64,000 bases of DNA, taken from NCBI GenBank assembly GCA_963754235.1, contig CAVWFK010000036.1, positions 1 through 64,000 of the forward strand, written 5' to 3'. Shown one piece after another: positions 16,102 to 54,026 of this stretch. Numbering within the stretch: position 1 is the first letter of the stretch; every line of letters starts with the position of its first letter. The DNA comes from an uncultured Alphaproteobacteria bacterium. Its GTDB lineage: Bacteria; Pseudomonadota; Alphaproteobacteria; Acetobacterales; Acetobacteraceae. The position numbers and the translations under genes are program-made. Below the pieces are notes generated by a model that saw nothing but the letters and a program-made list of their open reading frames with translations, did no database searches and had not been told where the DNA came from.

Positions 16102-17148
16102 GTGCCATCCACAATTCCGCAACCGGTCGTCGCGCAGCTCACCCGCGCCGCTATTTTTCTCGTCGTGACGGTGAACTCCGGGCCGGGACATGATGTCACC
16201 GTGCGGACCTTGTGTGGTGATGTGGCTGCTCTTTTGCGCGCCGTGGGCTTCCGTGCCCTCGACGGTCGGCTGTCATGTGTCATGGGGCTTGGCTCCGACG
16301 CATGGGACCGGCTCTTCGGTGTGCCGAAGCCGAAAGAATTGCATCCGTTCCGTGAAATCCGCGGCCGGCATCACGCCGTCGCTACGCCGGGCGACATCCT
16401 CTTTCATATCCGCGCCACGCGTATGGATCTGTGCTTCGAACTGGCGACACAGATCATGTCGCGGCTGAGCGGCGCAGTCTCCACGGTGGACGAAGTGCAT
16501 GGCTTCAACTACTTCGATGATCGTGACCTGATCGGTTTCGTGGACGGGACGGAGAACCCCGTGGAGCAGGCGGCGATTGACGCCACCATCATCGGCGAGG
16601 AGGATGCGGCGTTTGCCGGTGGGAGTTACGCGATCGTACAAAAGTACGTTCATGACCTAAAGGGATGGAACGCGCTGCCCGTTGAGGAGCAAGAGAGAAT
16701 TATCGGCAGACTCAAGCTGTCCGACATCGAACTGGACGATAGCGTGAAGCCAACCTCCGCGCACAATGCCTTGACGACGATTATTGAAGACGGAAAACAG
16801 CTGGAGATCGTGCGCGACAACATGCCGTTCGGCGACGTGGGGAAGGGGGAGTTCGGTACCTATTTCATCGGTTATGCCCGCTCCCCGCGGCGGATCGAGC
16901 AGATGCTCGTGAACATGTTTGTCGGCCGGCCAGCCGGCAACTATGACCGGCTTTTGGATTTCAGCCGCGCCGTCACTGGCACGCTGTTTTTTGTGCCGTC
17001 CGCGACGTTTCTGGAGAATGTGGTGGCCGCCGGGGGCGCGGCTCCAGCGATGACCGGCCCGCCTGCGAACGGAGGTGAGGCGGAGGCCAAATCCGTCCCC
17101 GGATGGTTCACTCGGAATCGGCTCGCTGAAGAACAGAGGCAAGACATG
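16102..17148 (+). CDS. DyP-type peroxidase (DypB-like encapsulin cargo), C-terminal cargo-loading peptide out of frame
   Basis: GTG start. Strong similarity along the DyP domain ('..FVDGTENP..GGSYAIVQKYVHDL..DNMPFGDVG..GTYFIGYA..GTLFFVPS'). The targeting peptide 'DGSLGIGSLKNRGKT*' is encoded in the +1 frame at about 17102-17148, with TGA overlapping the encapsulin ATG. As written, the frame reads through into the encapsulin. Confidence 0.8.
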
Positions 17149-17952
17149 AACAATCTCCATCGGGAACTCGCCCCGATCTCCGATAAGGCATGGGAGCAGA
17201 TCGAAGAGGAGGCGTCGCGCACCCTCAAGCGCCACTTGGCGGCGCGGCGTGTCGTGGACGTGCTGGGCCCGAAGGGTCCCGAATTGTCGGCGGTCGGCAC
17301 CGGCCACCTCCGGCAGATCACGACGCCGGGCGATGGAATCCAAGCTGCGGCACGCGAGGCGAGGGCGCTCGTGGAATTGCGCGTTCCGTTCGATCTGACG
17401 CGCCAGGCGATTGACGATGTAGAGCGCGGCGCACTGGATTCAGACTGGTCGCCACTGAAGGTCGCGGCACGCAAAATTGCCTTCGCCGAAGACCACGCTG
17501 TCTTCGAAGGCTATGCCCCTGGGCAGATTCAGGGTTTCCGTCAAGGCACCAGCAACCCGACTTTGATGCTCCCGGCGGATGCGTGGAACTATCCGGATAC
17601 GGTCGCGCAGGCGGTAAGCCAATTACGCCTCGCCGGCGTCGATGGTCCCTATGTGCTCGTGCTGGGCGCCAATCCGTACACTGCAATCAGCGGAGCCAGT
17701 GCTGAGGGCTATCCGGTTCTGGAGCACATCCGGCGTCTCGTGGAGGGAGAGATCGTTTGGGCCCCAGCCATCGAGGGAGGTTTGGTACTGACCACCCGCG
17801 GCGGTGATTTTGAGTTGCACATCGGTCAGGACATCTCTATCGGTTACCTGAACCATTCTGAAGCCCTTGTTCAACTGTACCTGCAGGAAACCTTCGCGTT
17901 CCTGCTGCTGACAGCGGAAGCGTCCGTAATGCTCGCACCCCCGGAAAAATGA
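17146..17952 (+). CDS. family 1 encapsulin nanocompartment shell protein
   Basis: 'MNNLHRELAPISDKAWEQIEEEASRTLK..' 268 aa, HK97-fold encapsulin. Confidence 0.9.
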   Translation: MNNLHRELAPISDKAWEQIEEEASRTLKRHLAARRVVDVLGPKGPELSAVGTGHLRQITTPGDGIQAAAREARALVELRVPFDLTRQAIDDVERGALDSDWSPLKVAARKIAFAEDHAVFEGYAPGQIQGFRQGTSNPTLMLPADAWNYPDTVAQAVSQLRLAGVDGPYVLVLGANPYTAISGASAEGYPVLEHIRRLVEGEIVWAPAIEGGLVLTTRGGDFELHIGQDISIGYLNHSEALVQLYLQETFAFLLLTAEASVMLAPPEK

Positions 17953-18006
17953 ACGGTCGGAGCATTTGCCTGACACCACAACGATGACCTTGTTCGCGGC
18001 AGCCCC

Positions 18007-18765
18007 TCACGCTCCTTGGCGCTTGACCGTGAGCGGGCCGGACGCCTGGCAGGTGGGCATCACCTCCAGCCGGTTGACGTTCACCCGCGCCGGCAGCGAA
18101 ATGACCCAGGCGACCGTCTCGGCGATGTCCTCGGGCGTCAGCGGGTCGGCCCCGGCGTAGAAGGCGCGCGCCCGTTCAAGGTCGCCGCCGAAGCGGACGG
18201 CGCTGAACTCGGTGCCGCCGACCAGCCCCGGTTCCAGATCGGTCACGCGCACGCCGGTCCCCACCAAATCGGCGCGCAGGTTGAGGCTGAACTGCCGCAC
18301 GAACGCCTTCGACGCGCCGTACACGTGCCCGCCCGGATACGGGTAGGTGCCGGCCGTGCTGCCGATGTTCACCACGTGCCCGCGATCGCGCGCGACCATG
18401 CCGGGCAGCAGCGCGCGCGTGACGTGCAGCAGGCCCAGCACATTGACCTCCACCATCCGGTCCCAATCCGCGAGCTTGGCCACCGGGGCCGGATCGAGGC
18501 CGAGGCCAAGGCCCGCGTTGTTGACCAGCACATCGACCTCGCGCCAACCCTCGGGCAGGCTTTCGGGCAGCGCCGCGACGGCGTCGTGCTCGGTCACGTC
18601 GAGCGCGAACGGGAGGAAACGCACGCCCAGCTCGCGGCCGAGCGCTTCCAGCCGGTCCAGCCGCCGGGCGGCGCCGATCACGCGCTGCCCGTCGGCCACG
18701 AGACGGCGCGCGATCGCTGTGCCGAACCCGGCGCTGGCGCCGGTGACCAGGATGGTGCGGGTCAC
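18007..18765 (-). CDS. SDR family NAD(P)-dependent oxidoreductase (YdfG-like)
   Basis: 'ILVTGASAGFGTAIARRL', 'YGASKAF'. GTG start overlaps the ohr stop. Confidence 0.8.
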   Translation of the reverse strand: MTRTILVTGASAGFGTAIARRLVADGQRVIGAARRLDRLEALGRELGVRFLPFALDVTEHDAVAALPESLPEGWREVDVLVNNAGLGLGLDPAPVAKLADWDRMVEVNVLGLLHVTRALLPGMVARDRGHVVNIGSTAGTYPYPGGHVYGASKAFVRQFSLNLRADLVGTGVRVTDLEPGLVGGTEFSAVRFGGDLERARAFYAGADPLTPEDIAETVAWVISLPARVNVNRLEVMPTCQASGPLTVKRQGA

Positions 18766-19172
18766 GCGACTTCGAGCTTGACGTCGATGTTGCCGCGCGT
18801 CGCCTTCGAATACGGGCAGACCTGGTGCGCCTCTTGCATCAGCTTCTCGGCGGTCGCGCGATCGATCCCGGGCAGCGAGCCGCGCAGCTTGACCGCGAGG
18901 AAGAAGCCGCTGTCGTTCTTGTCGATGGTGACGTCGGCGGTGACGCGGATCTCCTTCGGTTGCACCTTCGCCTGGCTCGCGACCAGACCCAGCGCGCCGC
19001 CGAAGCAGGCGGAGTAGCCGGCGGCGAACAGATCCTCGGGGTTGCCGGCGCCGGGCTTGCCGGAGCCGCCCAGCTCCTTCGGCATGGCGAGGTCGAGCTT
19101 CACCACGCCGTCGCTGCTCTCGACATGGCCGTTGCGGCCGGCGACCGAGGTGGCGCTTGCGGTATAGGCCAT
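18762..19172 (-). CDS. ohr: organic hydroperoxide resistance protein (Ohr/OsmC family)
   Basis: 136 aa '..FAAGYSACFGGALG..VCPYSKATRGNIDV'. Confidence 0.9.
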   Translation of the reverse strand: MAYTASATSVAGRNGHVESSDGVVKLDLAMPKELGGSGKPGAGNPEDLFAAGYSACFGGALGLVASQAKVQPKEIRVTADVTIDKNDSGFFLAVKLRGSLPGIDRATAEKLMQEAHQVCPYSKATRGNIDVKLEVA

Positions 19173-19238
19173 GCGTTCGCTCCTGTTGTTGCGTGCGGTT
19201 GTTGCGTGCAGGGGGGAGGTGGGGTTCCTCTGCCGCGT

Positions 19239-20201
19239 GTGAAACCCGTCGCATTCTTCCACGGCGCGCATCCCGGTGCCAATGCGGCGCTGCTGCTTGG
19301 GCCCCGGCCGGTGCTGGTGGATAGCGGCTTCGGCAGCCAGACGGACGCGCTCGCCGCCTGGCTGCGCGGGCAGGGTGCGGCACCCGAACGGCTGGCGCTG
19401 GTGGTCAACACCCACCACCACAGCGATCACGTCGGCGGCAATGTTCTGTTCCACCGCCTCGGCGTGCCGATCGCGGCGCACGAAGCCGATGCCGCGCTTG
19501 TGAACGCGCGTGACCCGGACGCGTGCAGTGCCGCGTGGCTGCGCCAGCCGGTGCCGCCCTATGCGGTGGCGCGGCCGCTGGCGGAGGGCGACGAGATCGA
19601 CACCGGCGCCGCGGTCTGGCGGGTGCTGCACACGCCCGGCCACACGTTCGGCCATATCAGCCTGTGGTGCGCGCGGGCGCGAATGTTGATCGCGGGCGAC
19701 ACGGTGCATGCCGAGGATGTCGGCTGGCTCGCGCCCTGCCGCGACGGGCCGCGGACGCTCGCGTGGATGCGCGCAAGCGTGGCGCGCCTCGCGGCACTGG
19801 ACGTGAGCGTGTCGCTGTCCGGCCACGGTCCGCCCTGCCGCGACTTCGCCGCCGCCTGCGCCGTTGCCGAGATGCGGCTGGCGCGCTGGGAACGCGAGCC
19901 GGAGCGAATGGCGCGGCACGCCTGCAAGCGCGTGTTCGCCTCGGCGCTGATGATTGCGGGCGGGATGACGGAGGCGGGATTGCGCGCGCATTTGCTCGGC
20001 GCGCCGTGGTTTTGCGATCACGCGCGGGCGGCGTTCGGCGTCGAGCCGGCGGAGTTCGTGGCGCCGATGATCGCCGAGATGCTGCGCTCCGGCGCGGCCG
20101 AGTGGCGTGCGGGCCGGCTGGTGGCGACGGCACCGCACGACGTGGTGCCGGCGGGCTGGGCCGCTTCGGTGCCGATGCCGGCGGATTGGCCGCCGCAATG
20201 A
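19239..20201 (+). CDS. MBL-fold metallo-hydrolase
   Basis: 'NTHHHSDHVGGN' motif. GTG start, about 321 aa. Confidence 0.7.
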   Translation: MKPVAFFHGAHPGANAALLLGPRPVLVDSGFGSQTDALAAWLRGQGAAPERLALVVNTHHHSDHVGGNVLFHRLGVPIAAHEADAALVNARDPDACSAAWLRQPVPPYAVARPLAEGDEIDTGAAVWRVLHTPGHTFGHISLWCARARMLIAGDTVHAEDVGWLAPCRDGPRTLAWMRASVARLAALDVSVSLSGHGPPCRDFAAACAVAEMRLARWEREPERMARHACKRVFASALMIAGGMTEAGLRAHLLGAPWFCDHARAAFGVEPAEFVAPMIAEMLRSGAAEWRAGRLVATAPHDVVPAGWAASVPMPADWPPQ

Positions 20202-20202
20202 A

Positions 20203-21024
20203 TTAGGGATTCGATTCTTTGTTATACCGCTCGAACATCGCGGCGGCGATTTCCGGGCTGCTCGGCCACTGGCCGCGCCGTTGCCCGGCATGGGTCTGAT
20301 AAGTGTCCAGCCGGTCGGGGTCGGGCTGCACCACCTTGCCCGCTTGCAGGAACAGCAAACCCGCCTTGTCGGTCGGCATCCGCGCAACAAAGGCGTCGGC
20401 GTCGTCAAGAACCTGCCGCAAGCGCGTCATGGTCGCGGCAGGGTCAACGGGCGGGTCGCTCGCCACGCGCCGGAAATCCGCTTCCGTGTAGCGGCCAAGG
20501 CGGCGAACCTCGTTGATAAGCCCCTCCGGCGTAAAGCCGAGCGACTTGCCGACGGCGGCCCACACCACGGCCCCAAGCGGCAGAACGCGGTCATGGATCG
20601 TCAGCAAGTCCACCACGTCGCGCGGCTCCCGCCGTCCGGCCGCGGCCATCACCTTGTTGGTGGCGAGGTCAACCGGATGCAGCACATAGCCGAATGCCTC
20701 GTCCGGCATCGTCGGGAAAAACCGGTAGTCGGCGTCAACCGCCCATTCCAGCTTCGTCGTCTCGCCGCCTTTTCGGGCAACGACCGCATACATCGCCGGC
20801 TCGCGCCGCAGCCATTGCAGTTCGAAGCCGTCGGCCTGCAATGTGGCGCCATCTTCCTGCACCGCGCGCGCCACCCGTTCCTCGCGGTCGTGGAAAACGT
20901 CGATGTCGCCGGAATAACGCGGCGCGTCCCGGTTCAAAGGAGTGCTGCCCGCGACATAGCTTTCCGGGTCGCGGTGCGCGGCGAGCAAGCGCAGGATATC
21001 CGATTGAATTCTAGTGAGGGGCAC
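20203..21024 (-). CDS. AbiEii/AbiGii-type (DUF1814) nucleotidyltransferase toxin-family protein
   Basis: '..YVAGSTPLNRDAPRYSGDIDVFHD..' NTase signature. GTG start overlapping the upstream small ORF. Confidence 0.6.
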   Translation of the reverse strand: MPLTRIQSDILRLLAAHRDPESYVAGSTPLNRDAPRYSGDIDVFHDREERVARAVQEDGATLQADGFELQWLRREPAMYAVVARKGGETTKLEWAVDADYRFFPTMPDEAFGYVLHPVDLATNKVMAAAGRREPRDVVDLLTIHDRVLPLGAVVWAAVGKSLGFTPEGLINEVRRLGRYTEADFRRVASDPPVDPAATMTRLRQVLDDADAFVARMPTDKAGLLFLQAGKVVQPDPDRLDTYQTHAGQRRGQWPSSPEIAAAMFERYNKESNP

Positions 21025-21226
21025 GGCACGCGTTCTCGATCTGCTCCGCCAGCCGCCGCGCCCGCAGGTCGCCTTCTACCCGCAGGCTGCGGGTAATCGC
21101 GAGCGCATCTGCGGGTGTCGGCTCGGGCACCGGACGGCTGCTCCATAAGGCGGTTGCCCCGAAATCCGCAAACGCCTGCCGGTAGAGCGTCGCAAAATCC
21201 TCCGCCTGTCCTGGTTCCTTGCTCAT
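21011..21226 (-). CDS. small hypothetical protein (71 aa), possible cognate antitoxin
   Basis: ATG with SD 'taAGGAcgccATG' behind an AT-rich promoter-like patch (21227-21300). 14-nt overlap with the NTase gene. Confidence 0.4.
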   Translation of the reverse strand: MSKEPGQAEDFATLYRQAFADFGATALWSSRPVPEPTPADALAITRSLRVEGDLRARRLAEQIENACRAPH

Positions 21227-21375
21227 GGCGTCCTTAATACCAACTCGCTGATGGAGCTGAAATAAATGGCTGTTCTTGCTTATCATGCAAGGGACGTCGG
21301 CGCTTCCGCCGTCAGGCCGGGAACGGTCGCGAGTCTGTGCCGCGCCTCGCGGATGCGCTTCCGCCGCGGCTCCCC

Positions 21376-21449
21376 GAGCGTCCTTCCCCACCCCTCGGCA
21401 CCCAGCCACGCTACCCGCCCGGCCGCGATCGTGGCGGCCACGCGCGGCG
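21376..21449. repeat. about 75-bp direct repeat, copy 1 (duplicate of the phnM-like 3' end)
   Basis: About 92% identical to 22226-22300. Still encodes '..PRVAATIAAGRVAWLGAEGWGRTL' out of any gene context. Confidence 0.6.
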
Positions 21450-21505
21450 CGTTCCAGCGAACACTGTCCAGGGACGAAGGCCACGCGCCTTTCCTTCTGC
21501 CCATG

Positions 21506-21913
21506 TCAGCTCGCCGCACGAAACGGATTGACGATGCGCAGCCGGCCATCGAGCGCCATCCCGTGCTGCATGTCTTCCGACCACAACGTGTCACAATCGG
21601 CATGGAGAGCGGAGGCCGCGATCATGGCGTCATAGACTGAGAGATTGTAGCGCTCGGCCAGCGCCAAGCCAGTTTCGTGCATCTCGACCGTAAGGGGGTG
21701 AACGGTCAGCAAGCCGCGCAAGATGGACAGCAACGAATGGGTATCCTGCCATGACATTCGCATCTTACGGCGGGCGACCTTGGCAAGCTCGTTCAACACC
21801 TGAACGCTGATCGCGCCGCCGCGGCCGATGATCGCCTCTGCCTGGTCCGCCTTCACCGCATCCCCGGACGCAATATAGATGAGGACATTGGTGTCGAAGA
21901 AGCTAGCGGGCAT
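21506..21913 (-). CDS. vapC: type II toxin VapC (PIN-domain ribonuclease)
   Basis: 'MPASFFDTNVLIYIASGD..' PIN motifs. Confidence 0.85.
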   Translation of the reverse strand: MPASFFDTNVLIYIASGDAVKADQAEAIIGRGGAISVQVLNELAKVARRKMRMSWQDTHSLLSILRGLLTVHPLTVEMHETGLALAERYNLSVYDAMIAASALHADCDTLWSEDMQHGMALDGRLRIVNPFRAAS

Positions 21914-22133
21914 TCGCCTCGTCCCGGTCGAACTTGAAATCGGGAGGAAGGCGGCCGCGGAACGCGCGTAGCCGTCTCAGCAATTCCGCACGGCCAGGTT
22001 TGCGCGCAACGGCCAGTTCCCGCGCGTCGGCGACGTGGATTTCGATCTCATCACCTTCCTTGAGTTCGAGCGCCTCGACCACGGCCGCAGGGAGGCGGAC
22101 GGCGAGGCTGTTACCCCATTTGGCGACCAGCAT
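21903..22133 (-). CDS. vapB: type II antitoxin VapB (AbrB/MazE/SpoVT fold)
   Basis: 'MLVAKWGNSLAVRLPAAVVEALELKEGDEIEI..'. 11-nt overlap with vapC. Confidence 0.8.
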   Translation of the reverse strand: MLVAKWGNSLAVRLPAAVVEALELKEGDEIEIHVADARELAVARKPGRAELLRRLRAFRGRLPPDFKFDRDEANAR

Positions 22134-22191
22134 CTTGATCTCCCGGTATGGATATACATGCGAAGAAATGTGTATCCAAGGGCGCGGCAAA

Positions 22192-23380
22192 TCAACGGAA
22201 AGGTGCTGCATTGCAGGCGGACCCGGCGAGCGTCCTTCCCCACCCCTCGGCGCCCAGCCACGCCACCCGCCCGGCCGCGATCGTGGCGACGAGGCGCGGC
22301 GTGGCCCCCCGCATCGGCGACCAGCAGCAGATCGGCGCGCTTGCCGGCCGCGATCGTGCCGCGATCGGCGAGCCCGCAGGCTGCCGCCGGATTGGCCGAA
22401 ACGAGCCGCCACGCCGCCGCCAGATCGCGCACGCCACGCGACGCCAGCACGAACGCCGCGCGCAGCATCGCCGGATAGAAATAGTCGCTGGAGAGCACGG
22501 TGCAGAGTCCGGCCTCGGCGAGCCGCGCCGCCGACGCCCAGCCGAGATGCGAGCGCCCGCGCACCACGTTGGGGCTGCCCATCACCACCCAGTCGCCCGC
22601 TTCGCGCGCGGCCTCGGCGACCGCCTCCGCCATCGGGAACTCGCAGATGCGCGCGCCGCGGGCGCGGAAGGCGGCGCGCGTCGCGATGCTTTCGTCGTCG
22701 TGGCTCGCCATCGGCAGCCCGGCCGCTCGCGCCGCCGCCGCGATCGCGTCGAGCCCGGCCGGAACGGCACCGGCACCCCTCTCCACCCTGGCCGCGAGCG
22801 CGCGGAACGCCTCAAGCGTCATGCCGGCGCGCTCGCCGTATTTCGCGCCCAACACCGGGTCGGCGATCCGGCGCAGGATCGTCGGCGTGTGGTCGTTGAA
22901 CGCCAGCAGATGCACGCGGCCGCCGGCAATGTCGGCGCGCGCCATGTCGAGTGCCGCGACGTTGAACGCCTCCCAGCGCAGATGGATGCGCATGTCGCAC
23001 ACGGCGCGTGCGCGGTGCGCCTCCATCGCGTCGAGCAGCGCGCGCCACGTCTCGGCACCACGCAGCCCGGGCTCCCAGGAGAGCGTGACACCGTGATAGG
23101 CGGTGGTGATGCCGTTCGCCAGCAGCTGCGCTTCGGTATCGGCCAGCGCGACGGACGGCGGAAAATCCACGCCCGGCCGCGGCTGCAATTGCCGCTCGAA
23201 CGCATCGCCGTGGATATCGACGATGCCGGGCAGCACCAGCAGGCCGCGCGCATCGATCGCGCAACCGGCCTCGGCACACCCGATGGCCGCGATCCGACCC
23301 TCGGCCAGCAGCAGATCGGCCGTTTCCCAATTCCCCTCGCCGAGCAGCAGGCGGCCGCCGATGACACCGAGCGGCGTCAC
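22192..23380 (-). CDS. phnM: PhnM-like amidohydrolase (second phnM copy), apparent -1 frameshift near a C6 run at about 22305-22310
   Basis: '..PGIVDIHGDAFERQ..GKRADLLLVADAGG' in one frame. The expected C-terminus '..PRLVATIAAGRVAWLGAEGW..*' is in another frame (ORF 22192..22437). GTG start overlaps the phnF stop. Confidence 0.7.
22226..22300. repeat. about 75-bp direct repeat, copy 2 (native phnM-like 3' end)
   Basis: See copy 1. The two copies bracket vapBC. Confidence 0.6.
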
Positions 23381-24120
23381 GGCTCGCACACGATCTGCAC
23401 GCGCGGCGTCGGATAGCGGGCCAGGCAGAACTCGATCACGCGCCCGTCGCGATCGACGTTGACGTTCTCGCACACCAGCAGCGGCCGCGAGCGCGGCATC
23501 CTCAGCAGCCGTACCTCCTCCGCATTCGGCAGCCGCGCGGTCACGCGCGTCACCTGGCGCAGATAGTCGGCAACTCCGACCCGCCGCAGGGCGGCGGTGA
23601 TCGAAGGCGTCTCGTGCAGCGCCGCCAGCAGCCCGGGCAGGCGGGCGGCGGGGAAATGGTGCGAACCGAGGCTGACCGGCCGCGCATCGGCAAAGCCGAG
23701 GCGCTCCATCAACACGACCCGCCCGCGCGCGCGCAGGCCGAGGGCGGACGCGACCTCGCGCTCGGCCGGCACTTCGGCAAGCCGCAGCACCTGGCCCGAG
23801 GGTTCCTTGTTGTGGCGGCGGATCCATTCCGAGAAGCGCGTGCGGGGCGAGACGTTGTACTCGAGCACGTCTTCGGCCACGAAAGCGCCGCGGCCCTGCT
23901 CGACCCGCACCAGGCCGCCGCGCGACAGCTCTTCCATCGCCCGGCGCACGGTATGGCGATTGACGCCGAAGCGAGAAGCGAGCTGCGCCTCGGTGGGCAG
24001 CCGCGCGCCGGGCGCCGCGCCGCCCGTGATCTCGCGCCCCAGCGTCTCGGTAATGCGCCGCCACACGGCGACCCCGCGCGCCGTGCCGAGCGCCGGTTCG
24101 GGGATTGGAATGTCACTCAA
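23377..24120 (-). CDS. phnF: phosphonate metabolism transcriptional regulator PhnF (GntR/UTRA)
   Basis: '..EAQLASRFGVNRHTVRRAMEEL..' HTH plus UTRA domain. TTG start. Confidence 0.85.
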   Translation of the reverse strand: MSDIPIPEPALGTARGVAVWRRITETLGREITGGAAPGARLPTEAQLASRFGVNRHTVRRAMEELSRGGLVRVEQGRGAFVAEDVLEYNVSPRTRFSEWIRRHNKEPSGQVLRLAEVPAEREVASALGLRARGRVVLMERLGFADARPVSLGSHHFPAARLPGLLAALHETPSITAALRRVGVADYLRQVTRVTARLPNAEEVRLLRMPRSRPLLVCENVNVDRDGRVIEFCLARYPTPRVQIVCEP

Positions 24121-24154
24121 GGAACGTGGCCATTATTGGCATTGCAGCAATACC

Positions 24155-24283
24155 GTCATGGTCGGCGAAGGCCGACCATCCACGTCTTTCGTGACGCGGC
24201 AAAGTCGTGGATGCTCGGCCGGAGCCTGTCCTCGGGCGGGCCTTCGGCCCGACCCGGGGGCCGAGCATGACGGGCTGGTTAGA
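24155..24283. repeat. MITE/REP-like element copy B (long form) in the phnF/phnG divergent region
   Basis: Near-identical to copy A. Confidence 0.6.
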
Positions 24284-24342
24284 GCGATCGCTCCGGGCAT
24301 TGCGACTTGACGCTTAACGGAGAGGCGTCTAGCTGTCTAGAC

Positions 24343-24810
24343 ATGTCGGACGAGCCCGCAACGACAAACGAAATCGCCGCGCGGCAGCGCTGGATGGCGG
24401 TGCTGGCCCGCGCTTCCGCCGCCGAGATCGAGCGATTGCTGGCCGGCGCCCCTGCCCTCTCCGCGCACACCCGCCTGCGCGGGCCGGAAACCGGGCTCGT
24501 GATGCTGCGCGGCCGCGCCGGCGGCAGCGGGGCCGCGTTCAATCTGGGCGAGACGACCGTCACGCGATGCAGCGTGCGCAACGCCGAGGGCCGCGTCGGC
24601 CATGCCACGATCGCCGGCCGCGACCTGCGCGCCGCCGAGCTCGCGGCGGCGCTGGACGCGGCGCTGCAAGATGCCGCGCGGCGAGCGGTGCTGGAGGCGG
24701 CGGTGCTCGCACCCCTCGCGGCGGCGCAGGCAGCGCGGCGCGCGGCGCAGGCACGGCGCGCGGCGGCGACGCGGGTGCAGTTCTTCACGCTCGCGACGAT
24801 GCGCGCATGA
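24343..24810 (+). CDS. phnG: C-P lyase subunit PhnG
   Basis: 'MSDEPATTNEIAARQRWMAVLA..'. Confidence 0.85.
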   Translation: MSDEPATTNEIAARQRWMAVLARASAAEIERLLAGAPALSAHTRLRGPETGLVMLRGRAGGSGAAFNLGETTVTRCSVRNAEGRVGHATIAGRDLRAAELAAALDAALQDAARRAVLEAAVLAPLAAAQAARRAAQARRAAATRVQFFTLATMRA

Positions 24811-25382
24811 GCCTCGAACAGCCGGGCTTCGCCGATCCGGTCGCGGGCGCGCAATCCTGCTTCCGCGCGGTGCTCGACGCGATGGCGCGTCCGGGCCGCG
24901 TGCAGGCGGCGGGCGCCGGCCTTACCCCGCCCGCGCCGCTCGATCCGGCGACCGCCGCGGTGCTGCTGACGCTCGTGGACCCCGAGACGCCGCTCTCTCT
25001 GCCCGCCGCGGCGGCACCGGCGGCCGAGTGGATTGCTTTCCACTGCGGGGCGCCGGTCGTGCCGCGCATCGCCGAGGCGAGCTTCGTGCTCCGCTTCGAT
25101 CTGCCTGATTTCGCAACCTTGCAGGTAGGCACTCACGAGATGCCGGAACGCGGCGCCACGCTGATCCTGCAACTGCCGGCCCTCGGCAGCGGCGCCGCGC
25201 TCCACCTCGCCGGTCCCGGCCTCGCCGCCCCGGCACTCCTGCGCGCGACCGGCCTGCCCGGGGATTTCGCGGCGCGCTGGGCCGCCAACCACGCGCGGTT
25301 TCCGTGCGGCGTCGATCTCATCTTGTGCAGCGGCACCATGCTTGCCGCCCTGCCGCGCAGCGTCACGGTGGCGGCGGTCTGA
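24807..25382 (+). CDS. phnH: C-P lyase subunit PhnH
   Basis: 'MSLEQPGFADPVAGAQSCFRAVLDAMARPG..'. ATGA overlap. Confidence 0.85.
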   Translation: MSLEQPGFADPVAGAQSCFRAVLDAMARPGRVQAAGAGLTPPAPLDPATAAVLLTLVDPETPLSLPAAAAPAAEWIAFHCGAPVVPRIAEASFVLRFDLPDFATLQVGTHEMPERGATLILQLPALGSGAALHLAGPGLAAPALLRATGLPGDFAARWAANHARFPCGVDLILCSGTMLAALPRSVTVAAV

Positions 25383-26485
25383 TGGCCTATGTCGCGGTCA
25401 AGGGCGGCGAGCGCGCGATCGAGGCCGCCCACGCCTGGCTCGCCGAGGAGCGGCGCGGCGATCCCGAATTGCCGGATGTGTCCACCGGGCAGATCGCCGA
25501 GCAGCTTGGCCGCGCGGTTGATCGGGTGATGGCGGAGGGATCGCTGTACGATCCCGGCCTCGCGGCACTCGCGATCAAGCAGGCGCAGGGCGATCTGATC
25601 GAGGCCGCGTTCCTGCTGCGCGCCTACCGCACCACGCTGCCGCGCTTCGGCGCCTCCGAGCCGGTGCGCACCGAGGCGATGGCGGTGCGCCGGCGCATCT
25701 CGGCGGTGTTCAAGGACCTGCCCGGCGGCCAGGTGCTCGGACCGACGACCGACTACACGCACCGGCTGCTCGATTTCGCGCTCGCGGCCGGCTCGACGCC
25801 GCCTGCCCCGCCTCAAGCTGTCGCGCCTCAAGCAATCGCCGAGGATGCACCGGCGCCGCGCGTCACCGACATCCTGGGCGGCGAAGGGCTGATCGAAGCG
25901 GACCCGGCAGGCGACGACATGCCCCCCGGCGACCTCACCCGCGACCCGCTGGCCTTCCCCGCGTCGCGCGATCTGCGCTTGCAGGCGCTCGCGCGCGGCG
26001 ACGAGGGATTCCTGCTCGGCCTCGGCTATTCGACTCAGCGCGGCTATGGCAACGCGCACCCGTTCGCGGGCGAGATCCGGATGGGCGAGGTAGCGGTCGA
26101 GATCGTGCCGCCCGAGCTCGGATTTCCGGTGGAGATCGGCACCGTTACGATCACGGAATGCCAGGTGGTGAACCAGTTTCGCGGCTCGAAAACTGTGCCG
26201 CCGCAATTCACCCGCGGCTACGGCCTCGCCTTCGGCCATGCCGACCGGCGCGCGATGGCGATGGCGCTGGTGGATCGCGCGCTGCGCGCCGCGGAGCTGG
26301 GCGAGGACGTGACGGCACCCGCGCAGAGGCAGGAATTCGTGCTGTCGCACTGCGATAACGTAGAAGCGACCGGCTTCGTCGAGCATCTCAAGCTGCCGCA
26401 CTACGTCGATTTCCAGAGCGAGCTGGAGACGATCCGGCGGCTGCGCCGTGACGCCGAGACCGCGATGCCGAAGGCCGCCGAATGA
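25382..26485 (+). CDS. phnI: C-P lyase subunit PhnI
   Basis: 'MAYVAVKGGERAIEAAH..'. Confidence 0.9.
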   Translation: MAYVAVKGGERAIEAAHAWLAEERRGDPELPDVSTGQIAEQLGRAVDRVMAEGSLYDPGLAALAIKQAQGDLIEAAFLLRAYRTTLPRFGASEPVRTEAMAVRRRISAVFKDLPGGQVLGPTTDYTHRLLDFALAAGSTPPAPPQAVAPQAIAEDAPAPRVTDILGGEGLIEADPAGDDMPPGDLTRDPLAFPASRDLRLQALARGDEGFLLGLGYSTQRGYGNAHPFAGEIRMGEVAVEIVPPELGFPVEIGTVTITECQVVNQFRGSKTVPPQFTRGYGLAFGHADRRAMAMALVDRALRAAELGEDVTAPAQRQEFVLSHCDNVEATGFVEHLKLPHYVDFQSELETIRRLRRDAETAMPKAAE

Positions 26486-27321
26486 TGCAGGGCTACAACT
26501 TCGCCTATCTCGACGAGCAGACGAAACGCATGGTGCGCCGCGCGATCCTCAAGGCGGTCGCGGTGCCGGGGCATCAGGTGCCGTTCGGCTCACGCGAGAT
26601 GCCGCTGCCCTATGGCTGGGGAACCGGGGGGATCCAGGTGACGGCCGCGATCCTGGGTGCCTCGGACGTGCTCAAGGTGATCGACCAGGGTGCCGACGAC
26701 ACCACCAACGCGGTCTCGATCCGCCGCTTCTTCGCCCGCACCGCGGGCATCGCCACCACCACGCACACGGCCGATGCGAGCATCATCCAGACCCGCCACC
26801 GCATCCCGGAGGCTAGGCTGCGCGAGGATCAGATCATCGTCTATCAGGTGCCGCAGCCCGAGCCGCTGTACCGGCTCGAGCCGCGCCGCGCCGAAGCCAC
26901 GCGGATGCACGCGCTCGCCGATTACGGCCTGATGCACGTCAAGCTGTACGAGGATGTGTCCCGACTGGGCCAGGTCTCGATCAGCTACGATTATCCGGTG
27001 ATGGTCGCGGGACGCTATCTGGCGTCGCCCTCGCCGATCCCGGCCTTCGACAATCCGAAGATGCACAGGATGCCGGCGGTGCAATTGTTCGGCGCCGGGC
27101 GGGAGAAGCGCATCTATGCGATCCCGCCCTATACCGAGGTCCGCTCGCTCGATTTCGAGGACCATCCGTTCCGGCCCACCCGCGCGCCGCACGCCTGCGC
27201 GTTGTGCGGAGCGGCCGACAGCTATCTCGACGAGGTGGTGACGGATGATCGCGGCGGACGGATGTTCGTCTGCTCCGACACCGATCATTGCGAGCAGCGG
27301 CGCGGGGCGGCGGCGGCGTGA
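26482..27321 (+). CDS. phnJ: C-P lyase catalytic subunit PhnJ
   Basis: 'MMQGYNFAYLDEQTKRM..' with a Cys cluster 'CALCGAADSYLDEV..CSDTDHC'. Confidence 0.9.
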   Translation: MMQGYNFAYLDEQTKRMVRRAILKAVAVPGHQVPFGSREMPLPYGWGTGGIQVTAAILGASDVLKVIDQGADDTTNAVSIRRFFARTAGIATTTHTADASIIQTRHRIPEARLREDQIIVYQVPQPEPLYRLEPRRAEATRMHALADYGLMHVKLYEDVSRLGQVSISYDYPVMVAGRYLASPSPIPAFDNPKMHRMPAVQLFGAGREKRIYAIPPYTEVRSLDFEDHPFRPTRAPHACALCGAADSYLDEVVTDDRGGRMFVCSDTDHCEQRRGAAAA

Positions 27322-28091
27322 CCGCGCCCCTGCTCGAAGCCGAGCACCTCTCGCTCGCATTCGGCGCGGTGCAGGCGCTCGCTTGCGTCGATGCCGCGCT
27401 GTGGCCGGGCGAGGTGCTGGCGATCGTGGGCGAATCCGGCTCCGGCAAGACCACGCTGCTCAACGTGCTGTCCGGCCACCTCGCACCCGATCAGGGCCGG
27501 GTGTGGTATCGCGATCCCGCCGGGCTGCGGCACGACGTCCATGCGATGCCGGCCCCTGCGCTGCGCACGCTGCACCGCTCCGACTGGGGGTTCGTGCAGC
27601 AGGACCCGAAGCTGAGTTTGCGCATGGGCGTCTCCGCCGGCGGTAATGTCGGCGAGCGGCTGATGGCGCAGGGTGCCCGCCACTACGGCCGGATTCGCGA
27701 AGCGGCACTCGACTGGCTGCGGCAGGTGGAGATCGACGCCGATCGCATCGACGACCTGCCGCGCACCTTCTCGGGTGGAATGCTGCAACGCTTGCAGATC
27801 GCGCGCACCCTGGTCACGCATCCGCGGCTGGTGTTCATGGACGAACCGACCGGCGGCCTGGACGTGTCGGTGCAGGCGCGGCTGCTCGACCTGATCCGCA
27901 CCTTGGTGGCGCGATTGCAGGTCGCGGTGATGCTGGTGACGCACGATGTCGCCGTCGCCCGCCTGCTCGCCGGGCGGATCATGGTGATGCAGCGCGGCCG
28001 AGTGGTCGAAACCGGGCTCACCGACCAGGTGCTCGACGACCCGCAGCACGAATACACGCAACTGCTGGTAAGCTCGGTGCTGGCGGCATGA
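27318..28091 (+). CDS. phnK: phosphonate C-P lyase ATP-binding protein PhnK
   Basis: Walker A 'GESGSGKTT'. GTGA overlap. Confidence 0.9.
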   Translation: MTAPLLEAEHLSLAFGAVQALACVDAALWPGEVLAIVGESGSGKTTLLNVLSGHLAPDQGRVWYRDPAGLRHDVHAMPAPALRTLHRSDWGFVQQDPKLSLRMGVSAGGNVGERLMAQGARHYGRIREAALDWLRQVEIDADRIDDLPRTFSGGMLQRLQIARTLVTHPRLVFMDEPTGGLDVSVQARLLDLIRTLVARLQVAVMLVTHDVAVARLLAGRIMVMQRGRVVETGLTDQVLDDPQHEYTQLLVSSVLAA

Positions 28092-28117
28092 CCACGCACC
28101 CCTCATGGCCGGCGAAT

Positions 28118-28278
28118 GCCGGATCGTCGTCATGCTCGGCGAAGGCCGCACACTCGTCATGCTCGGCGGAGGCCGAGCATCCACGACTTTGCGGGCCCAC
28201 GAAAGGCGTGGATGGTCGGCCGGAGCCTGTCCTCGGGCGGGCCTTCGGCCCGACCCGGGGGCCGACCATGACGGTGAG
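28118..28278. repeat. MITE/REP-like element copy C (expanded form) between phnK and phnL
   Basis: 'GTCATGCTCGGCGAAGGCCG..' with an internal duplication. Sits in the only sizeable intergenic gap of the phnG-M operon. Confidence 0.6.
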
Positions 28279-28287
28279 AATTGCGGC

Positions 28288-28989
28288 ATGACCACGCTGA
28301 TGCTGCGCGCCGAGGCGCTGGAGAAAACCTTCACCCTGCACCTGCGCGGCGGCCTCCGCCTGCCGGTGCTGCGCGACCTCGCACTCGACGTCCGTGCCGG
28401 CGAATGCGTCGCCCTGGCCGGGCCGTCGGGCGCGGGCAAGACCACGCTGCTGCGCAGCCTCTATGGCAATTACCGCGCCGGCGGCGGCCGCATCCTGGTG
28501 CGCCATCGCGGCGAGATGGTCGATATCGCGCGCGCCGATCCGCGCACCGTGCTCGCGGTCCGCGCCGAGACGCTCGGCCATGTCAGCCAGTTCCTGCGCG
28601 TGGTGCCGCGCGTGGCCGCCCTCGACATCGTGGCCGAGGCGGCGTTGGCGCGCGGTGCCGCACCGGAAGCGGCGCGGGAGCAGGCACGGGCGCTGCTCGC
28701 GCGCCTCGGCATCCCGCCGCGTCTGCACGCCCTGCCGCCCGCGACCTTCTCCGGCGGCGAGCAGCAGCGCATCAACCTCGCCCGCGCCTTCATCGCCCGC
28801 CATCCGGTGCTGCTGATCGACGAGCCGACCGCCTCGCTCGACGACGCCCGCCGCGACGTCGCGGTGGCGATGATGCGCGAGGCCAAGGCGGCAGGTGCCG
28901 CGATCGTGCTGATCGCGCACGACGTTGCGGTGCGCGACGCGATCGCCGATCGTCTGCTGACGCTGACGCCGTTGCAGGATGCCGCATGA
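28288..28989 (+). CDS. phnL: phosphonate C-P lyase ATP-binding protein PhnL
   Basis: 'MTTLMLRAEAL..GPSGAGKTTLL'. Confidence 0.9.
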   Translation: MTTLMLRAEALEKTFTLHLRGGLRLPVLRDLALDVRAGECVALAGPSGAGKTTLLRSLYGNYRAGGGRILVRHRGEMVDIARADPRTVLAVRAETLGHVSQFLRVVPRVAALDIVAEAALARGAAPEAAREQARALLARLGIPPRLHALPPATFSGGEQQRINLARAFIARHPVLLIDEPTASLDDARRDVAVAMMREAKAAGAAIVLIAHDVAVRDAIADRLLTLTPLQDAA

Positions 28990-30125: not shown

Positions 30126-30399
30126 TAAAACCCGTGGGCAACTCCGTTGCAATATGCATCGTCATGTATGGACGGCCCCCGTCTGGCAAGGAGGTTTTGG
30201 CGGCGCTGGCGATTGGTCTGGAGCGGTCATGTATTCGGCCTGTTGCTGCGGTCGAATGCTGACCGCTGGCCCCGATGGGTTACGCGGGCCGGGTTCCAAG
30301 CATCGCGGCGCGCTGTGGGGCGCGATGACGAGACGGAGTGTCCCGGTCCAGGTCCTGACCATTTTGCCGTCGCTGCCTTCTGCTCCTTGCTGGGTCACT

Positions 30400-31760
30400 G
30401 GCTGCTCTTCAGGCGAGCGGCCAGAAAGGGGAAGGTTTCTTGGTTTGGCTGCTGCGGGGCGTTCCTTCGTCCCGGCCTTCGTCCCGGCCTGTGTGGTTGC
30501 GGGCGCCGCGCGCAGCGGCGGTCAAGGGGGGCCGGAGGCCCCCGCCGCAGGCGGCGCGCAGCGCCCTTGACGGCCGCGAGCACGGCACCACGCTGGAGTG
30601 GGCCGCAGCTGCGGCCATCATTGCGCCACCTGTGCCGCGGGGCGGCGATAGGTCTCACCGGAGATCAGCATCGCCCAGGCGATGCGGGCGGTTTTCGCCG
30701 CCTGCGCCAAGACCACGACCTTCACCGGCCGGCGAGCCAGGATGCCGCGCTGCCAGGCGGTGGCGCGATCGGTGCGGCTGCGGGCATAGCGCATGATCGT
30801 GCTGGCGCCGAGGGCCAACAGCTTGCGCAGCCGGATGTCGCCCTGGCGGCTGATGCCGCTCGCGCGCCGCTTGCCCGCACTCGAATGCTCAAGCGGTGTC
30901 AGGCCGCACCAGGCGGCGAAGTCGCGGGCGCTGCGGAACTGCCGACCGTCGCCGATTGCGGTGACGATGGCGTGGGCGGTGATCGGGCCAACGCCGGGGA
31001 TGGTGGCCAGCCGGCGCATCACCGGGTGCTCGCGGGCGGCCGCGACGATGCGTTCCTCCAGCGCCGCAATGTCGCGCTGCAACCTCTCGATGGTCTTCAC
31101 CATGATGCGCAGCGGCACCCGAAGCGGCTCCGGGATCGCAACCTCCGCCGTGTCGTCGACCCGCCGCGCCAGCTCGGCAAAGCCCCGCCGGCCCTGGGCG
31201 GCGATGATGCCGAACTCGGCCAGCAGGCTGCGCGCGCAGTTCGTCAGCTGGGTCTGCTGCTTCAGCAGCAGATCGCGCGCGCGTTCCAGGCCACGCGCGG
31301 CCTGCTGCTCGATGCTCTTGATCGGCACGAAGCGCATGTTCGGCCGGCACACCGCCGCGCAGATGGCTTCGGCATCACGCGCGTCGTTCTTGTTGCGCCT
31401 GACGAAGGGCTTCACATAGGCGGCCGGGATCAGCCGCACCTCATGGCCGAGCGCCCGCAGCTGGCGCGCCCAGTAATGCGCGCTGCCGCAGGCCTCGATC
31501 CCCACCAGGGCGGGCGACTGCTTGGTGAAGAACGGCTCGACCTGGGTCCGGCGCAGCTTCTTCTGCTCGATCACCTTGCCGGTGCTGTCGGCCACATGCA
31601 CCTGGAACACAGACTTGGCGATATCCAGGCCGATTATGGTAGCGTTCATGACGGACGGTCTCCGTTGCTGGTTGGTCAAACCCCAGCTTGGCACATAGAT
31701 GCCGTCAGGGGGCCGTCCACCCAGCATCGCGAGGCGCGCTGCGCCGTGGCGATCCAGGCG
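30400..31760 (-). mobile_element. IS110-family insertion sequence (boundaries approximate)
   Basis: Contains the IS110 transposase gene. Inserted in the phnM / DUF1045-gene spacer. No obvious terminal inverted repeats, as is typical of IS110. Confidence 0.6.
30618..31649 (-). CDS. IS110 family transposase
   Basis: 'MNATIIGLDIAKSVFQVHV..' DEDD N-domain, C-terminal '..CGLTPLEHSSAGKRR..'. Confidence 0.85.
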   Translation of the reverse strand: MNATIIGLDIAKSVFQVHVADSTGKVIEQKKLRRTQVEPFFTKQSPALVGIEACGSAHYWARQLRALGHEVRLIPAAYVKPFVRRNKNDARDAEAICAAVCRPNMRFVPIKSIEQQAARGLERARDLLLKQQTQLTNCARSLLAEFGIIAAQGRRGFAELARRVDDTAEVAIPEPLRVPLRIMVKTIERLQRDIAALEERIVAAAREHPVMRRLATIPGVGPITAHAIVTAIGDGRQFRSARDFAAWCGLTPLEHSSAGKRRASGISRQGDIRLRKLLALGASTIMRYARSRTDRATAWQRGILARRPVKVVVLAQAAKTARIAWAMLISGETYRRPAAQVAQ

Positions 31761-31813
31761 GGCCGCTCCGTGCCTCCCGCCTGGATCGCCACGCCGCCCA
31801 GCGGCGGCTCGCG

Positions 31814-34904: not shown

Positions 34905-35214
34905 TTGGCATGGGAAAAGATCGTGAAGCCCTCAGCCGCCCTTGACCTCAAGCGAGTCGCCGTACGCGAAGCTGCGAGCCGGTTTCGTGTCGCGAATCCG
35001 CGCGTATTCGGCTCGGGTACTGCACGGAACCGACACGGACGGTGGCGATCTCGATCTGTTGGTGGATGCGTTGCCGGGAGCGACCCTGTTCGATCTTGGT
35101 GGCCTGCAAGTCGAGCTCGAAGAATTGCTGGGCGTTTCCGTCGATCTGGTGACGCCGGGGGATTTGCCGGTCAAATTCCGCGATCAAGTTCTTGCGGAGG
35201 CGAGGCCGGTGTGA
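34905..35214 (+). pseudogene. MNT (minimal nucleotidyltransferase, MntA-like) antitoxin, frameshifted
   Basis: '..RVFGSGTAR' (ORF 34905..) and 'GTDTDGGDLDLLVD..LGVSVDLV..' (ORF 34942..) lie in adjacent frames. Together they would give the NTase signature hGS..D.D. Confidence 0.5.
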
Positions 35215-35217
35215 AGC

Positions 35218-35592
35218 ATGAACCGCCTGCCCGACTACCTCGCCCACATCCAGCAAGCGGCGTCGGACGCGTGCAGCTTTGTCGAGGGACTGCATAAGGA
35301 AGAGTTCTTCGCCGACAAGCGCACGCAAAAGGCTGTCGTCATGAGCCTGGTCATTGTGGGCGAGGCCGCGACGAAGGTAATGGCTCGTTATCCCGAATTC
35401 GTAGCGAGGCACTCCGAAGTACCATGGCGTAGCATGCGCGGGATGCGCAACCGCGTTGCGCACGGCTACTTCGACATCGACCTCGAGGTGGTTTGGGACA
35501 CGGTGCAGACCGCTGCGCCCGAGCTGCTCGATCGTCTGGCTGCCATTCGTCATGACGCCGAGTCCCATATTGAAAGTAGGGGCTACGAGTGA
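35218..35592 (+). CDS. hepT: HepT-like (DUF86/HEPN) ribonuclease toxin
   Basis: '..MRGMRNRVAHGYFDIDLEVVW..' Rx4HxY motif. Confidence 0.8.
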   Translation: MNRLPDYLAHIQQAASDACSFVEGLHKEEFFADKRTQKAVVMSLVIVGEAATKVMARYPEFVARHSEVPWRSMRGMRNRVAHGYFDIDLEVVWDTVQTAAPELLDRLAAIRHDAESHIESRGYE

Positions 35593-39826: not shown

Positions 39827-39958
39827 ACGTCAACGAATTTCTGAACCAGGACACCAGCCGCCTCTCTCGCTCCTCGCGGTGATCCTTGACCGGACGCAGC
39901 GGTGGTGTTAGAGTTCCTAACGGAAACCGCACCCGCGGTCACGTTCAAGGAGCGACAC

Positions 39959-40642
39959 ATGAGAAGCGAGGATGGGCAATTCGTGGCCGGCGCCAGCGGC
40001 AACCCTGGCGGGCGGCCGCGGGCGGTGCAGCAGGCGCGCGACCTGATCGAGGCGCTGGCCCCGGAACTGGTGATGACGCTGATGGAGATCGTGCGGGACC
40101 GCAAAGTGCCGGCCCGGGCGCGCGTCGCGGCGGCGATGGGGCTGCTCGACCGCCGCTACGGGCGACCGAAACAGCAGGTGAAGTGGGCGGACGGACTGAT
40201 CCTGCCGCTGCCCGACGACCAAGAGCGGGACGACGAAGAGCGGGGCGACGAAGAACCGGAGGAGCCCTGCCCGCCGGAGCCGCCCGCCGAGCCGGCCGCC
40301 GATGACGCTGCCCATGTCGACGCGGCGCCGGATGGCGATGAGCCTGCGGCCGAGCCGGTCGCGGCAGCCGCGGCCGAGCCGGACCCGGCCGTGACAAGCG
40401 ACGCGGCGGTGAAGCAGCCGGGCCGGCCGGACGAGGCGCCGCCGCGACCGTCCGACGAGCCGGCACCATCTCACCTCGCAGGTGGCGGATCATGGCGGTT
40501 CGGGATGGACCACGGAGCACGGTCCCCCCACGCCGGCCCCAACCCTGTTCTGAGGCGCCGCTTTCCCCACCCGGCGGTGGGGTCGCCAACTCCTGTTCTG
40601 AGGTGCGGCTTGATCCACCCCTGTCCTGAGGTGCGGCCCTGA
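39959..40642 (+). CDS. phage-related DUF5681-like protein with acidic low-complexity tail
   Basis: '..ASGNPGGRPRAVQQARDLIEALAPEL..' followed by a D/E/P-rich tail. Confidence 0.45.
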   Translation: MRSEDGQFVAGASGNPGGRPRAVQQARDLIEALAPELVMTLMEIVRDRKVPARARVAAAMGLLDRRYGRPKQQVKWADGLILPLPDDQERDDEERGDEEPEEPCPPEPPAEPAADDAAHVDAAPDGDEPAAEPVAAAAAEPDPAVTSDAAVKQPGRPDEAPPRPSDEPAPSHLAGGGSWRFGMDHGARSPHAGPNPVLRRRFPHPAVGSPTPVLRCGLIHPCPEVRP

Positions 40643-40666: not shown

Positions 40667-40689
40667 GCAGCGCGATGAGGGCCGGCGGA

Positions 40690-46445: not shown

Positions 46446-46536
46446 CCGCCTTCTCCATCAAAGTTGAGTGCCGAGTGTGCAACACCTCGCTGCTCTCCCG
46501 TTAGGCTGCGCGTTGACACTTCGGCACACAAAGGGG

Positions 46537-47532: not shown

Positions 47533-47541
47533 TGGCGGCGG

Positions 47542-47991: not shown

Positions 47992-48103
47992 TCGCTCCTC
48001 CCCTCGACAGTGGCCGGGTATCTGCCTGAACTTTCCGCCCCGCGCGCCGTTCCGTCGGTCGCGCTCAGATGACGAACGCCGCGGAGACGGGAGGACGATC
48101 AGG

Positions 48104-51061: not shown

Positions 51062-51078
51062 GCCTCAGCCCTTGCCGC

Positions 51079-52866: not shown

Positions 52867-53027
52867 GGGAGGCGCTCCAACCCTGCAACCGAACGGAGCA
52901 CGCCAACCGATGGACGCGCGTTCGCGATGCCGCAGCGGTTACGCGCCACCCTCCCCCGCGTTCCCGCGTTTGCGGTCAAATCGTGGCAGCGGGGCAGGGC
53001 GATCGCATTTGGACACGATGTTACCGT

Positions 53028-53113
53028 CATGGTCGGTGGAGGCCGACCATCCACGTCTTTCGTGCGGCCGCATCGTCGTGGATGCTCGGCATTCGCCGAG
53101 CATGACGGGGTTG
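53028..53113. repeat. MITE/REP-like element copy E (short form)
   Basis: 'CCGTCATGGTCGGTGGAGGCCGACCATCCACGTCTTTCGTGCGGCCGCATCGTCGTGGATGCTCGGCATTCGCCGAGCATGACGGGG'. Confidence 0.6.
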
Positions 53114-53139
53114 GGGCCCCCTCGGGTCAGGAGCGGTCG

Positions 53140-54026
53140 ATGCAGATCGAAGTGGTCGTGGACGCGGATGCGACGATCGGGGAGTCGCCGACCTGGGTGC
53201 CCGGCGAGAACGCGCTCTACTGGATCGACGTCAAAAGGCCCGCGCTCTATCGCTTCGATATCGCAAGCAATGTCCAGCACACCTGGCCGATGCCGAGCGA
53301 TATCGGTGCCTTCGCCCTGGCCGCGGACCCGCCGGGAGCAGTGGTGGCACTGCGGACCGGGATGTTCCGGCTCGACTTCGCATCCGGGTCACTCGACCTC
53401 CCTCGCCCCGCCGCCCTTCGACCCGGCGCTGTTCCGCTTCAATGAAGGTGCGTGCGACAGGTACCGGCCGCTTCTGGGTGGGCGTCATGTTCGACCCGCT
53501 TGATGGTACGCCGCCACCGCAGAAATCATCCCTGCACAGCTTGACCCTGCGCGGCGGCCTGCGCCCCGAACCGGACGCCGCCGAACTGCATAACGGCATG
53601 GCGTGGAGCCCCGACGGGCGCGAGTTCTACCTGTCGCATAGCCAGCATCAGGAGGTGTTCGCCTTCGCGTTCGACGCGGCGGCCGGCCGGCTCGGCGCGC
53701 GCCGCCTTTTCGTGCGCACCCCGAAGGCGCTTGGCCTGCCCGATGGCGCTGCCATCGACAGCGAAGGCGGCTACTGGTGCGCGCTGCACGGCGGCAGCCG
53801 GTTGCGGCGCTACACGGTGGCGGGTGAAATGGACCGCGACATCGCGCTCCCGGTGAGCCAGCCGACCATGTGCGCCTTTGCAGGCCCCGCCCTCGACGTG
53901 CTCTACGTGACCAGCGCCACCGACAAGCTCACGCCGGAGCAGCGCCGAGCCGAGCCGCTGGCCGGCGCGCTGCTGCGGCTGCGGCCCGGCGAGAGGGGCA
54001 TCCCCCGGCCCTGCATGGTGCGCTGA
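53140..54026 (+). pseudogene. SMP-30/gluconolactonase/LRE-family protein disrupted by two +1 frameshifts
   Basis: N-part 'MQIEVVVDADATIGESPTWVPGENALYWIDV..' (to 53445). The conserved 'FRFNEGACDR' lies in a third frame. The C-part 'GRFWVGVMFDPLDG..' starts at 53442. Confidence 0.7.

Follow-up and report, generated by a model that had tools for sequence, protein, structure and literature searches.

The window analysed here is a stretch of 64,000 nucleotides (assembly GCA_963754235.1, contig CAVWFK010000036.1, positions 1 to 64,000) from an uncultured alphaproteobacterium, in which four conserved genes are interrupted by five shifts of the reading frame. The affected genes encode a DyP-type peroxidase, a PhnM-like amidohydrolase, an MntA-type nucleotidyltransferase (MNT) that acts as the antitoxin of a HepT toxin, and a lactonase of the SMP-30 family. 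All five breaks are repaired by the same correction, the removal of one base, and we consider it probable that they are artefacts of a long-read consensus and not biology. This reading is favoured because the extra-base lesion is enriched in metagenome-assembled genomes (MAGs) built solely from Nanopore reads, and because the shifted parts of the genes bear no signs of decay. It is further favoured by the repaired products, which have family-typical lengths after an identical one-base correction at every site. Finally, established knowledge of HepT-MntA modules leads one to expect that a real break of the antitoxin next to an intact HepT would harm the cell.

Frame breaks in four conserved genes

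A first-pass annotation had reported five frameshifts with long conserved segments left in adjacent frames. Raw three-frame translation bore out both statements, with the breaks located at or beside the reported positions and the conserved segments present in all four genes (Table 1). DNA alignments with orthologous genes, the comparison it had suggested, revealed one extra base at the phnM site, the MNT site, and both SMP-30 sites. The GC content of the window is ~70%, and the PhnM orthologues (510 matches in a scan of genome contigs, the best with 78% amino acid identity, many from MAGs) assign it to Acetobacteraceae or a closely related group. Look-ups of the exact HepT and encapsulin sequences gave no match. 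Protein searches with DyP, SMP-30, and MNT gave a top identity of only 87-89%, with no same-species sequence among the matches. Contig CAVZPY010000014.1 of assembly GCA_963777265.1 (loci L081 and L085) represents the closest relative; it shares 87-92% nucleotide identity with the window and is syntenic with it at 21.5-22.2 kb and, where alignable, at ~29-64 kb.

Table 1. Positions of the interrupted genes, their frame breaks, and their partner genes within the window
Feature	Position	Strand	Remarks
DyP-type peroxidase body	16102..17100	+	frame 0, GTG start 16102; Pfam Dyp_perox_N and Dyp_perox_C full length
Interval holding DyP break (break 1, shift from frame 0 into frame +1)	17054..17100	+	three-frame translation, homologue C-termini
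Encapsulin targeting peptide, PDGSLGIGSLKNRGKT followed by stop	about 17087..17149	+	frame +1; stop overlaps encapsulin ATG (ATGA)
Family 1 encapsulin shell gene, intact	17146..17952	+	Pfam Linocin_M18 1-253/253
phnM-like amidohydrolase, C-P lyase operon	about 22192..23389	-	broken 27 codons ahead of repaired end
phnM break (break 2)	22305..22310	-	G6 on coding strand, C6 on plus strand
MNT antitoxin	34920..35214	+	GTG start 34920; split after codon 31
MNT break (break 3), surplus G in GGG	35015..35017	+	GG in closest relative (gap in L085 at window 35015); directly 5' of GTAC
HepT toxin partner, intact	35218..35592	+	Pfam HepT-like 1-119/120; RNRVAH (Rx4H) motif
SMP-30/gluconolactonase/LRE-like lactonase	53140..54026	+	split over three frames
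SMP-30 first break (break 4), extra C, CACT[C]GACC	53394	+	outside any run; DNA alignment to closest relative
SMP-30 second break (break 5), extra A or G, GAC[AG]GTACC	53459..53461	+	alignment to relative: GAC[A]GG at 53459

In the phnM-like gene, frame A ends in LLLVADAGG and frame B goes on with TPRLVATIAAGRVAWLG, which matches the C-termini of orthologues. Shortening the G6 run to G5 restores ADAGATPRLVATIAAGRVAWLG, colinear with the orthologues. A DNA alignment to three of them contains exactly one extra base, located at this run, and after repair the Pfam Amidohydro_3 match reaches 470/472 and is continuous over the break. The C6 position named in the first-pass annotation therefore stands, and its label of a -1 frameshift is debatable, since the event is the insertion of one base. 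A 75-nt direct repeat of the phnM 3' end (93% identical; 21375-21449 and 22227-22301) flanks a vapBC-like cassette on the minus strand, composed of a PIN gene (21509-21913) and a MazE/AbrB-type gene (21906-22130). Such an arrangement suggests that the cassette was inserted at the phnM end with duplication. The repeat boundary lies 4 nt from the break, and a recombination junction was considered as its cause; this was rejected, as phnM is colinear with the three orthologue DNAs save for one base. The closest relative does not carry the phnM-phnF-phnGHIJKL block at all (window 22184-28882 and 30126-31843 versus L085 5702-5725 and 6967-6978), and in its genome vapBC directly abuts the second amidohydrolase. 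An intact IS110-family transposase gene at 30621-31649 is also missing from that relative.

In the MNT antitoxin, the first frame breaks off after NPRVFGS and the adjacent frame takes over with VLHGTDTDGGDLDLLVD. The repaired protein reads NPRVFGSVLHGTD (FGSVLHGTD), as in most homologues read, and its length of 96 aa is that of the homologues apart from their N-terminal extensions (up to 89% identity at 100% coverage). Its Pfam NTP_transf_2 match (6-89/93) is continuous over the break. The first-pass description of a gene split over two frames was correct, with the start lying at the GTG at 34920 and not at 34905. After the 1-nt repair, the pair has both hallmarks of a HepT-MntA module, namely the GSx(n)DxD motif FGSVLHGTDTDGGDLDLLVD in MNT and RNRVAH in HepT.

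The SMP-30 gene had been described as split across three frames, and two breaks were indeed located there, at 53394 and at 53459-53461. Removal of the C at 53394 yields SLTSLAPPPF, identical to the closest homologue, and the alternative of removing one C from CCC at 53400-53402 leaves 6 mismatches versus 3. At the second site, repair gives CDSTGRFW (G removed; as in several homologues) or CDGTGRFW. The repaired gene of 885 nt aligns to the closest relative without gaps. Its product of 294 aa has the same length as nearly all of the 120 homologues listed, with 100% coverage, and its Pfam SGL match (1-246/246) is continuous over both breaks. A test of whether the two breaks lie in unusually divergent patches was only suggestive (about 0.2 x 0.06).

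The DyP break is the least clear of the five. The displacement of the targeting peptide from the DyP frame was correctly reported earlier; the proposed site, the C4 run at 17097-17100, is unproven, being one candidate within 17054-17100 together with TCCG at 17092-17095 and AAA at 17089-17091. Taking one base out of TCCG gives KSSPDGSLG, which is closer to the homologues. These are ~85% identical, mostly 353 aa long, and finish in PDGSLGIGSLKKEAGHE at their C-termini. Of the elements that make up a family 1 encapsulin-DyP operon, the shell and DyP domains are full length, and a peptide of the GSLxIGSLK type is present and, as assembled, out of frame. Frame 0 of DyP runs without a stop up to the encapsulin ATG at 17146, which gives a single open reading frame (ORF) of 617 codons (16102-17952) in the assembled sequence. 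The DyP tail ends in NRGKT and a stop where homologues have KEAGHE and a stop; a frameshift-like tail resembling it, KRGRI followed by a stop, occurs in 2 of 86 homologues.

The DyP-encapsulin genes belong to a stretch of lower GC content (~16000-21400; 0.61-0.66) that is unmatched in every related locus compared and that also carries genes for an SDR and OsmC, one with a metallo-beta-lactamase fold, and one resembling AbiEii. The DyP of the window is ~85% identical to proteins of MAGs labelled Nitrospira, Methylocella, and Acetobacteraceae, and matches across MAGs with such labels suggest horizontal spread of the cassette. Beside the closest DyP homologue, the encapsulin gene (L082 2555-3360, on a contig of JGI 3300082201) is called as fragments of 139 and 129 aa, an apparent further frameshift in a public metagenome contig.

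Further breaks were sought by codon-usage segmentation, by Pfam searches with 30 further ORFs, and by base-level alignment to the relative at ~31.8-64 kb where alignable. No other window-specific coding frameshift was found, the check being weaker at 1-22 kb and 39.7-40.7 kb, where there is no alignable relative. Full-length domain matches were obtained for rpsA, aroA, cmk, pyrF, HU, sppA, phnF, and the IS110 transposase. Apart from phnM, each phn gene is an unbroken ORF that could be aligned with its orthologues, and the alignment of the his-gene region to the relative contained no coding indel specific to the window. The tally is thus five breaks in 4 of ~70 genes.

Origin of the surplus bases

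As a control, the orthologous phn operon was examined in 80 related loci, against which the phn-operon proteins of the window were searched. The 27 loci from Microflora Danica (MFD) MAGs contained 54 frameshifts (2.36 per 10 kb), 43 of which were of the extra-base type, and these breaks lay mostly outside homopolymers. A single frameshift was present in the 44 short-read or isolate loci (0.03 per 10 kb), and none occurred in the phn-operon loci of nine other long-contig assemblies. Within the same clade and operon, the extra-base lesion is ~80-fold commoner in Nanopore-only MAGs than in short-read or isolate assemblies. The MFD MAGs were obtained from Nanopore reads only, by Flye assembly and one round of Medaka polishing (PMC12313526).

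The closest relative, GCA_963777265.1, appears to be an MFD MAG itself, judging from its accession prefix in the series of named MFD MAGs. Within ~30 kb where the ORFs of the window are intact, its coding sequence contains ~16 single extra bases, most of them outside homopolymers, and its gene calls are fragmented there. Genes split in this assembly include those for KDPG aldolase, PfkB, a TPP enzyme, LutB/LutC, CNNM, DUF3429, and HIT, and its annotation is unreliable in the compared region.

The state of the sequence downstream of the breaks was assessed by the ratio of nonsynonymous to synonymous substitution rates (dN/dS), calculated against the closest relative, and by a search for stops after repair. 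The ratio is 0.10 for the shifted part of MNT and 0.30 for that of SMP-30, with 0.24 for the unshifted part of SMP-30 and 0.09-0.25 for ten neighbouring genes. At each repaired break the Pfam match extends uninterrupted over its full length, and no in-frame stops are left after repair. Neither relaxed selection nor secondary lesions were seen downstream of the breaks in these tests, and this absence of decay means that the breaks, if genuine, must have arisen very recently. Of the two origins named in the first-pass annotation, long-read error and active pseudogenisation, the former is thus favoured, and the latter found no positive support.

The more specific proposal of a systematic homopolymer error was not supported. 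Only one of the 18 G/C runs of at least six bases in the window coincides with a break, and none of the 74 runs of five bases was assigned one. One break lies in a long homopolymer (phnM), one in a G3 run (MNT), and two or three in runs of 1-3 bases. With a single break in a long homopolymer and 17 unbroken G/C runs of at least six bases, such an explanation is too narrow. The statement that at least two breaks fall at C homopolymers is solid for the C6 run, unproven for the C4 run, and does not apply to the rest. Two of the five breaks stand directly 5' of GTAC (35015-35019 and 53459-53465), a rare tetramer with only 51 copies in 64 kb. GTAC also occurs at 3 of ~20 tightly localised breaks of Nanopore MAGs (L065 8532, L019 5896, L079 5205), where ~0.25 would be expected. 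This link was found post hoc and is a lead only; it may reflect a methylation- or context-linked consensus error.

Under the artefact reading, the surplus bases would be residual single-base insertion errors left in the consensus of long, error-prone reads, and their likeliest origin would be an assembly or metagenome bin made from Nanopore reads alone and polished only lightly. We infer that the window has such an origin and that the DNA itself lacks the surplus bases. In that case the real genes would be intact, with PhnM, the MNT antitoxin, and the SMP-30 lactonase encoded in full and DyP still joined to its targeting peptide.

Several observations weigh against this reading. With 5 breaks in 64 kb, the rate in the window (~0.8 per 10 kb) is lower by a factor of three to five than in the controls, the MFD loci (2.4) and the relative (~5). 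The breaks fall only in accessory genes that the cell can dispense with, as one would expect of real pseudogenes, the probability of such an outcome by chance alone being ~0.4. Extension of a run by a single base, such as G5 to G6 or GG to GGG, is also an outcome of polymerase slippage in vivo. At the DyP locus, 14 nt of the linker are missing relative to the three homologue DNAs aligned to it, and a single real 14-nt deletion would account for the break with no sequencing error at all, as parsimoniously as a natural length variant of 15 nt accompanied by one erroneous base. In addition, the evidence for a Nanopore origin of the window is indirect.

It is unlikely, in our judgement, that all five breaks are real and very recent frameshifts, representing early pseudogenisation of DyP targeting, C-P lyase (PhnM), MNT, and the lactonase. 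Such an account would explain why only accessory genes are hit and the housekeeping genes rpsA, aroA, cmk, pyrF, HU, and his are intact. It would also suit a fluid genome, as indicated by the intact IS110 transposase and several toxin-antitoxin cassettes, and the slippage-like lengthening of a G run in at least two breaks. However, it is difficult to reconcile with the lack of secondary lesions and of a relaxed dN/dS, with two uncompensated +1 events 65 nt apart in an otherwise sound SMP-30 gene, and with the loss of an antitoxin whose toxin looks functional. Moreover, all five events are insertions, that at 53394 apparently non-duplicative, and this very signature is, within the clade, nearly restricted to Nanopore-only MAGs. 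A mixed origin, in which the phnM, MNT, and SMP-30 breaks are consensus errors and the DyP break is a real 14-nt linker deletion that cuts off the targeting peptide and, in combination with a +1 change in the tail, fuses the DyP body in frame to encapsulin, is likewise given little weight. What speaks for it is the DNA alignment to the three homologues, where the shorter linker is accompanied by a second +1 difference, one extra nt after SLK, and by a change of the ancestral DyP stop from TAA to CAA. Together these three differences bring the DyP body into frame with encapsulin and thus create the long ORF. The C-terminal tail of the window DyP, with 46 aa, is also the shortest among 86 homologues, 77 of which have 51 aa. 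On the other hand, linker length varies naturally (47-52 aa), which makes an in-frame difference of 15 nt together with one wrong base equally possible, and frame +1 retains a perfect targeting peptide whose stop codon overlaps the encapsulin ATG. We also estimate that a T=1 shell would be too small to hold 60 fused DyP subunits.

If the DyP lesion is nevertheless real, it could represent a natural cargo-shell fusion that has just arisen, with the peroxidase joined in frame to the N-terminal end of the encapsulin that belongs to it and the targeting peptide lost, a scenario we regard as very improbable. Internal initiation at the encapsulin ATG could in that case provide free shell subunits, and the other breaks would either mark genuine pseudogenes at an early stage or be errors with no connection to it. 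Restoration of the proteins by transcriptional slippage or programmed +1 ribosomal frameshifting has a negligible probability and was rejected. The same +1 correction would serve at all five sites and slippage is conceivable at the G6 run, but the orthologues and homologues examined are all single ORFs, none with a shift, and the five contexts share no slippery motif. An Rfam scan of the window returned no element, and a tRNA scan of the window likewise returned none. Residual consensus error is the explanation we prefer for the five breaks.

Other features of the window

Two further toxin-antitoxin-like pairs were noted. The pair at 9638-10373 consists of a TumE-family toxin and a helix-turn-helix partner (HVO_A0114/MarR-like), and that at 20206-21250 of a weak AbiEii-like nucleotidyltransferase and a small upstream ORF. 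The ORF at 39890-40642 has a weak DUF5681 match and a tail rich in Pro, Asp, and Glu, and its coding signal ends 68 codons before the stop. At the corresponding position, the closest relative carries a LysE-family gene, and the DNA is not alignable.

Significance and comparison with known systems

The main value of these observations lies in quality control. If the breaks are consensus errors, any annotation of this genome will wrongly show HepT as an orphan, the C-P lyase operon as dead, the lactonase as lost, and DyP as lacking its targeting peptide, and at the break density of the window ~6% of genes would suffer. The control also provides a practical rule for this clade of high GC content: in the Nanopore-only MAGs examined, breaks are mostly single surplus bases outside long homopolymers, which homopolymer-aware filters will miss. 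If the breaks are real, the DyP-encapsulin fusion and the broken antitoxin beside a live toxin merit closer study.

The DyP locus resembles the family 1 encapsulin systems with DyP cargo of the Brevibacterium, Mycobacterium, and Rhodococcus type, in which DyP lies directly upstream of the Linocin_M18 shell gene. It shares with them the C-terminal targeting peptide GSLGIGSLK and the overlapping stop and start codons. In contrast to these systems, the assembled window has the peptide displaced from the DyP frame, and the DyP body shares its frame with the shell gene. The toxin-antitoxin locus has the layout of a HepT-MntA (HEPN/MNT) module, with a 96-aa MNT followed by a 124-aa HepT with Rx4H, and differs from it in that the assembled MNT is interrupted ahead of the GS...DxD catalytic region.

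Like frameshift pseudogenes flagged by annotation pipelines, the four genes have their conserved segments distributed over neighbouring frames. Established pseudogenes usually carry extra lesions and relaxed constraint, and neither of these was seen in the genes of the window. Another parallel is provided by the residual indel errors of Nanopore-only MAGs (PMC12313526). The density of breaks is lower in the window, and in both sets single surplus bases split otherwise conserved genes, with the same direction (43 of 54 in the control), mostly outside long homopolymers, and in the same clade.

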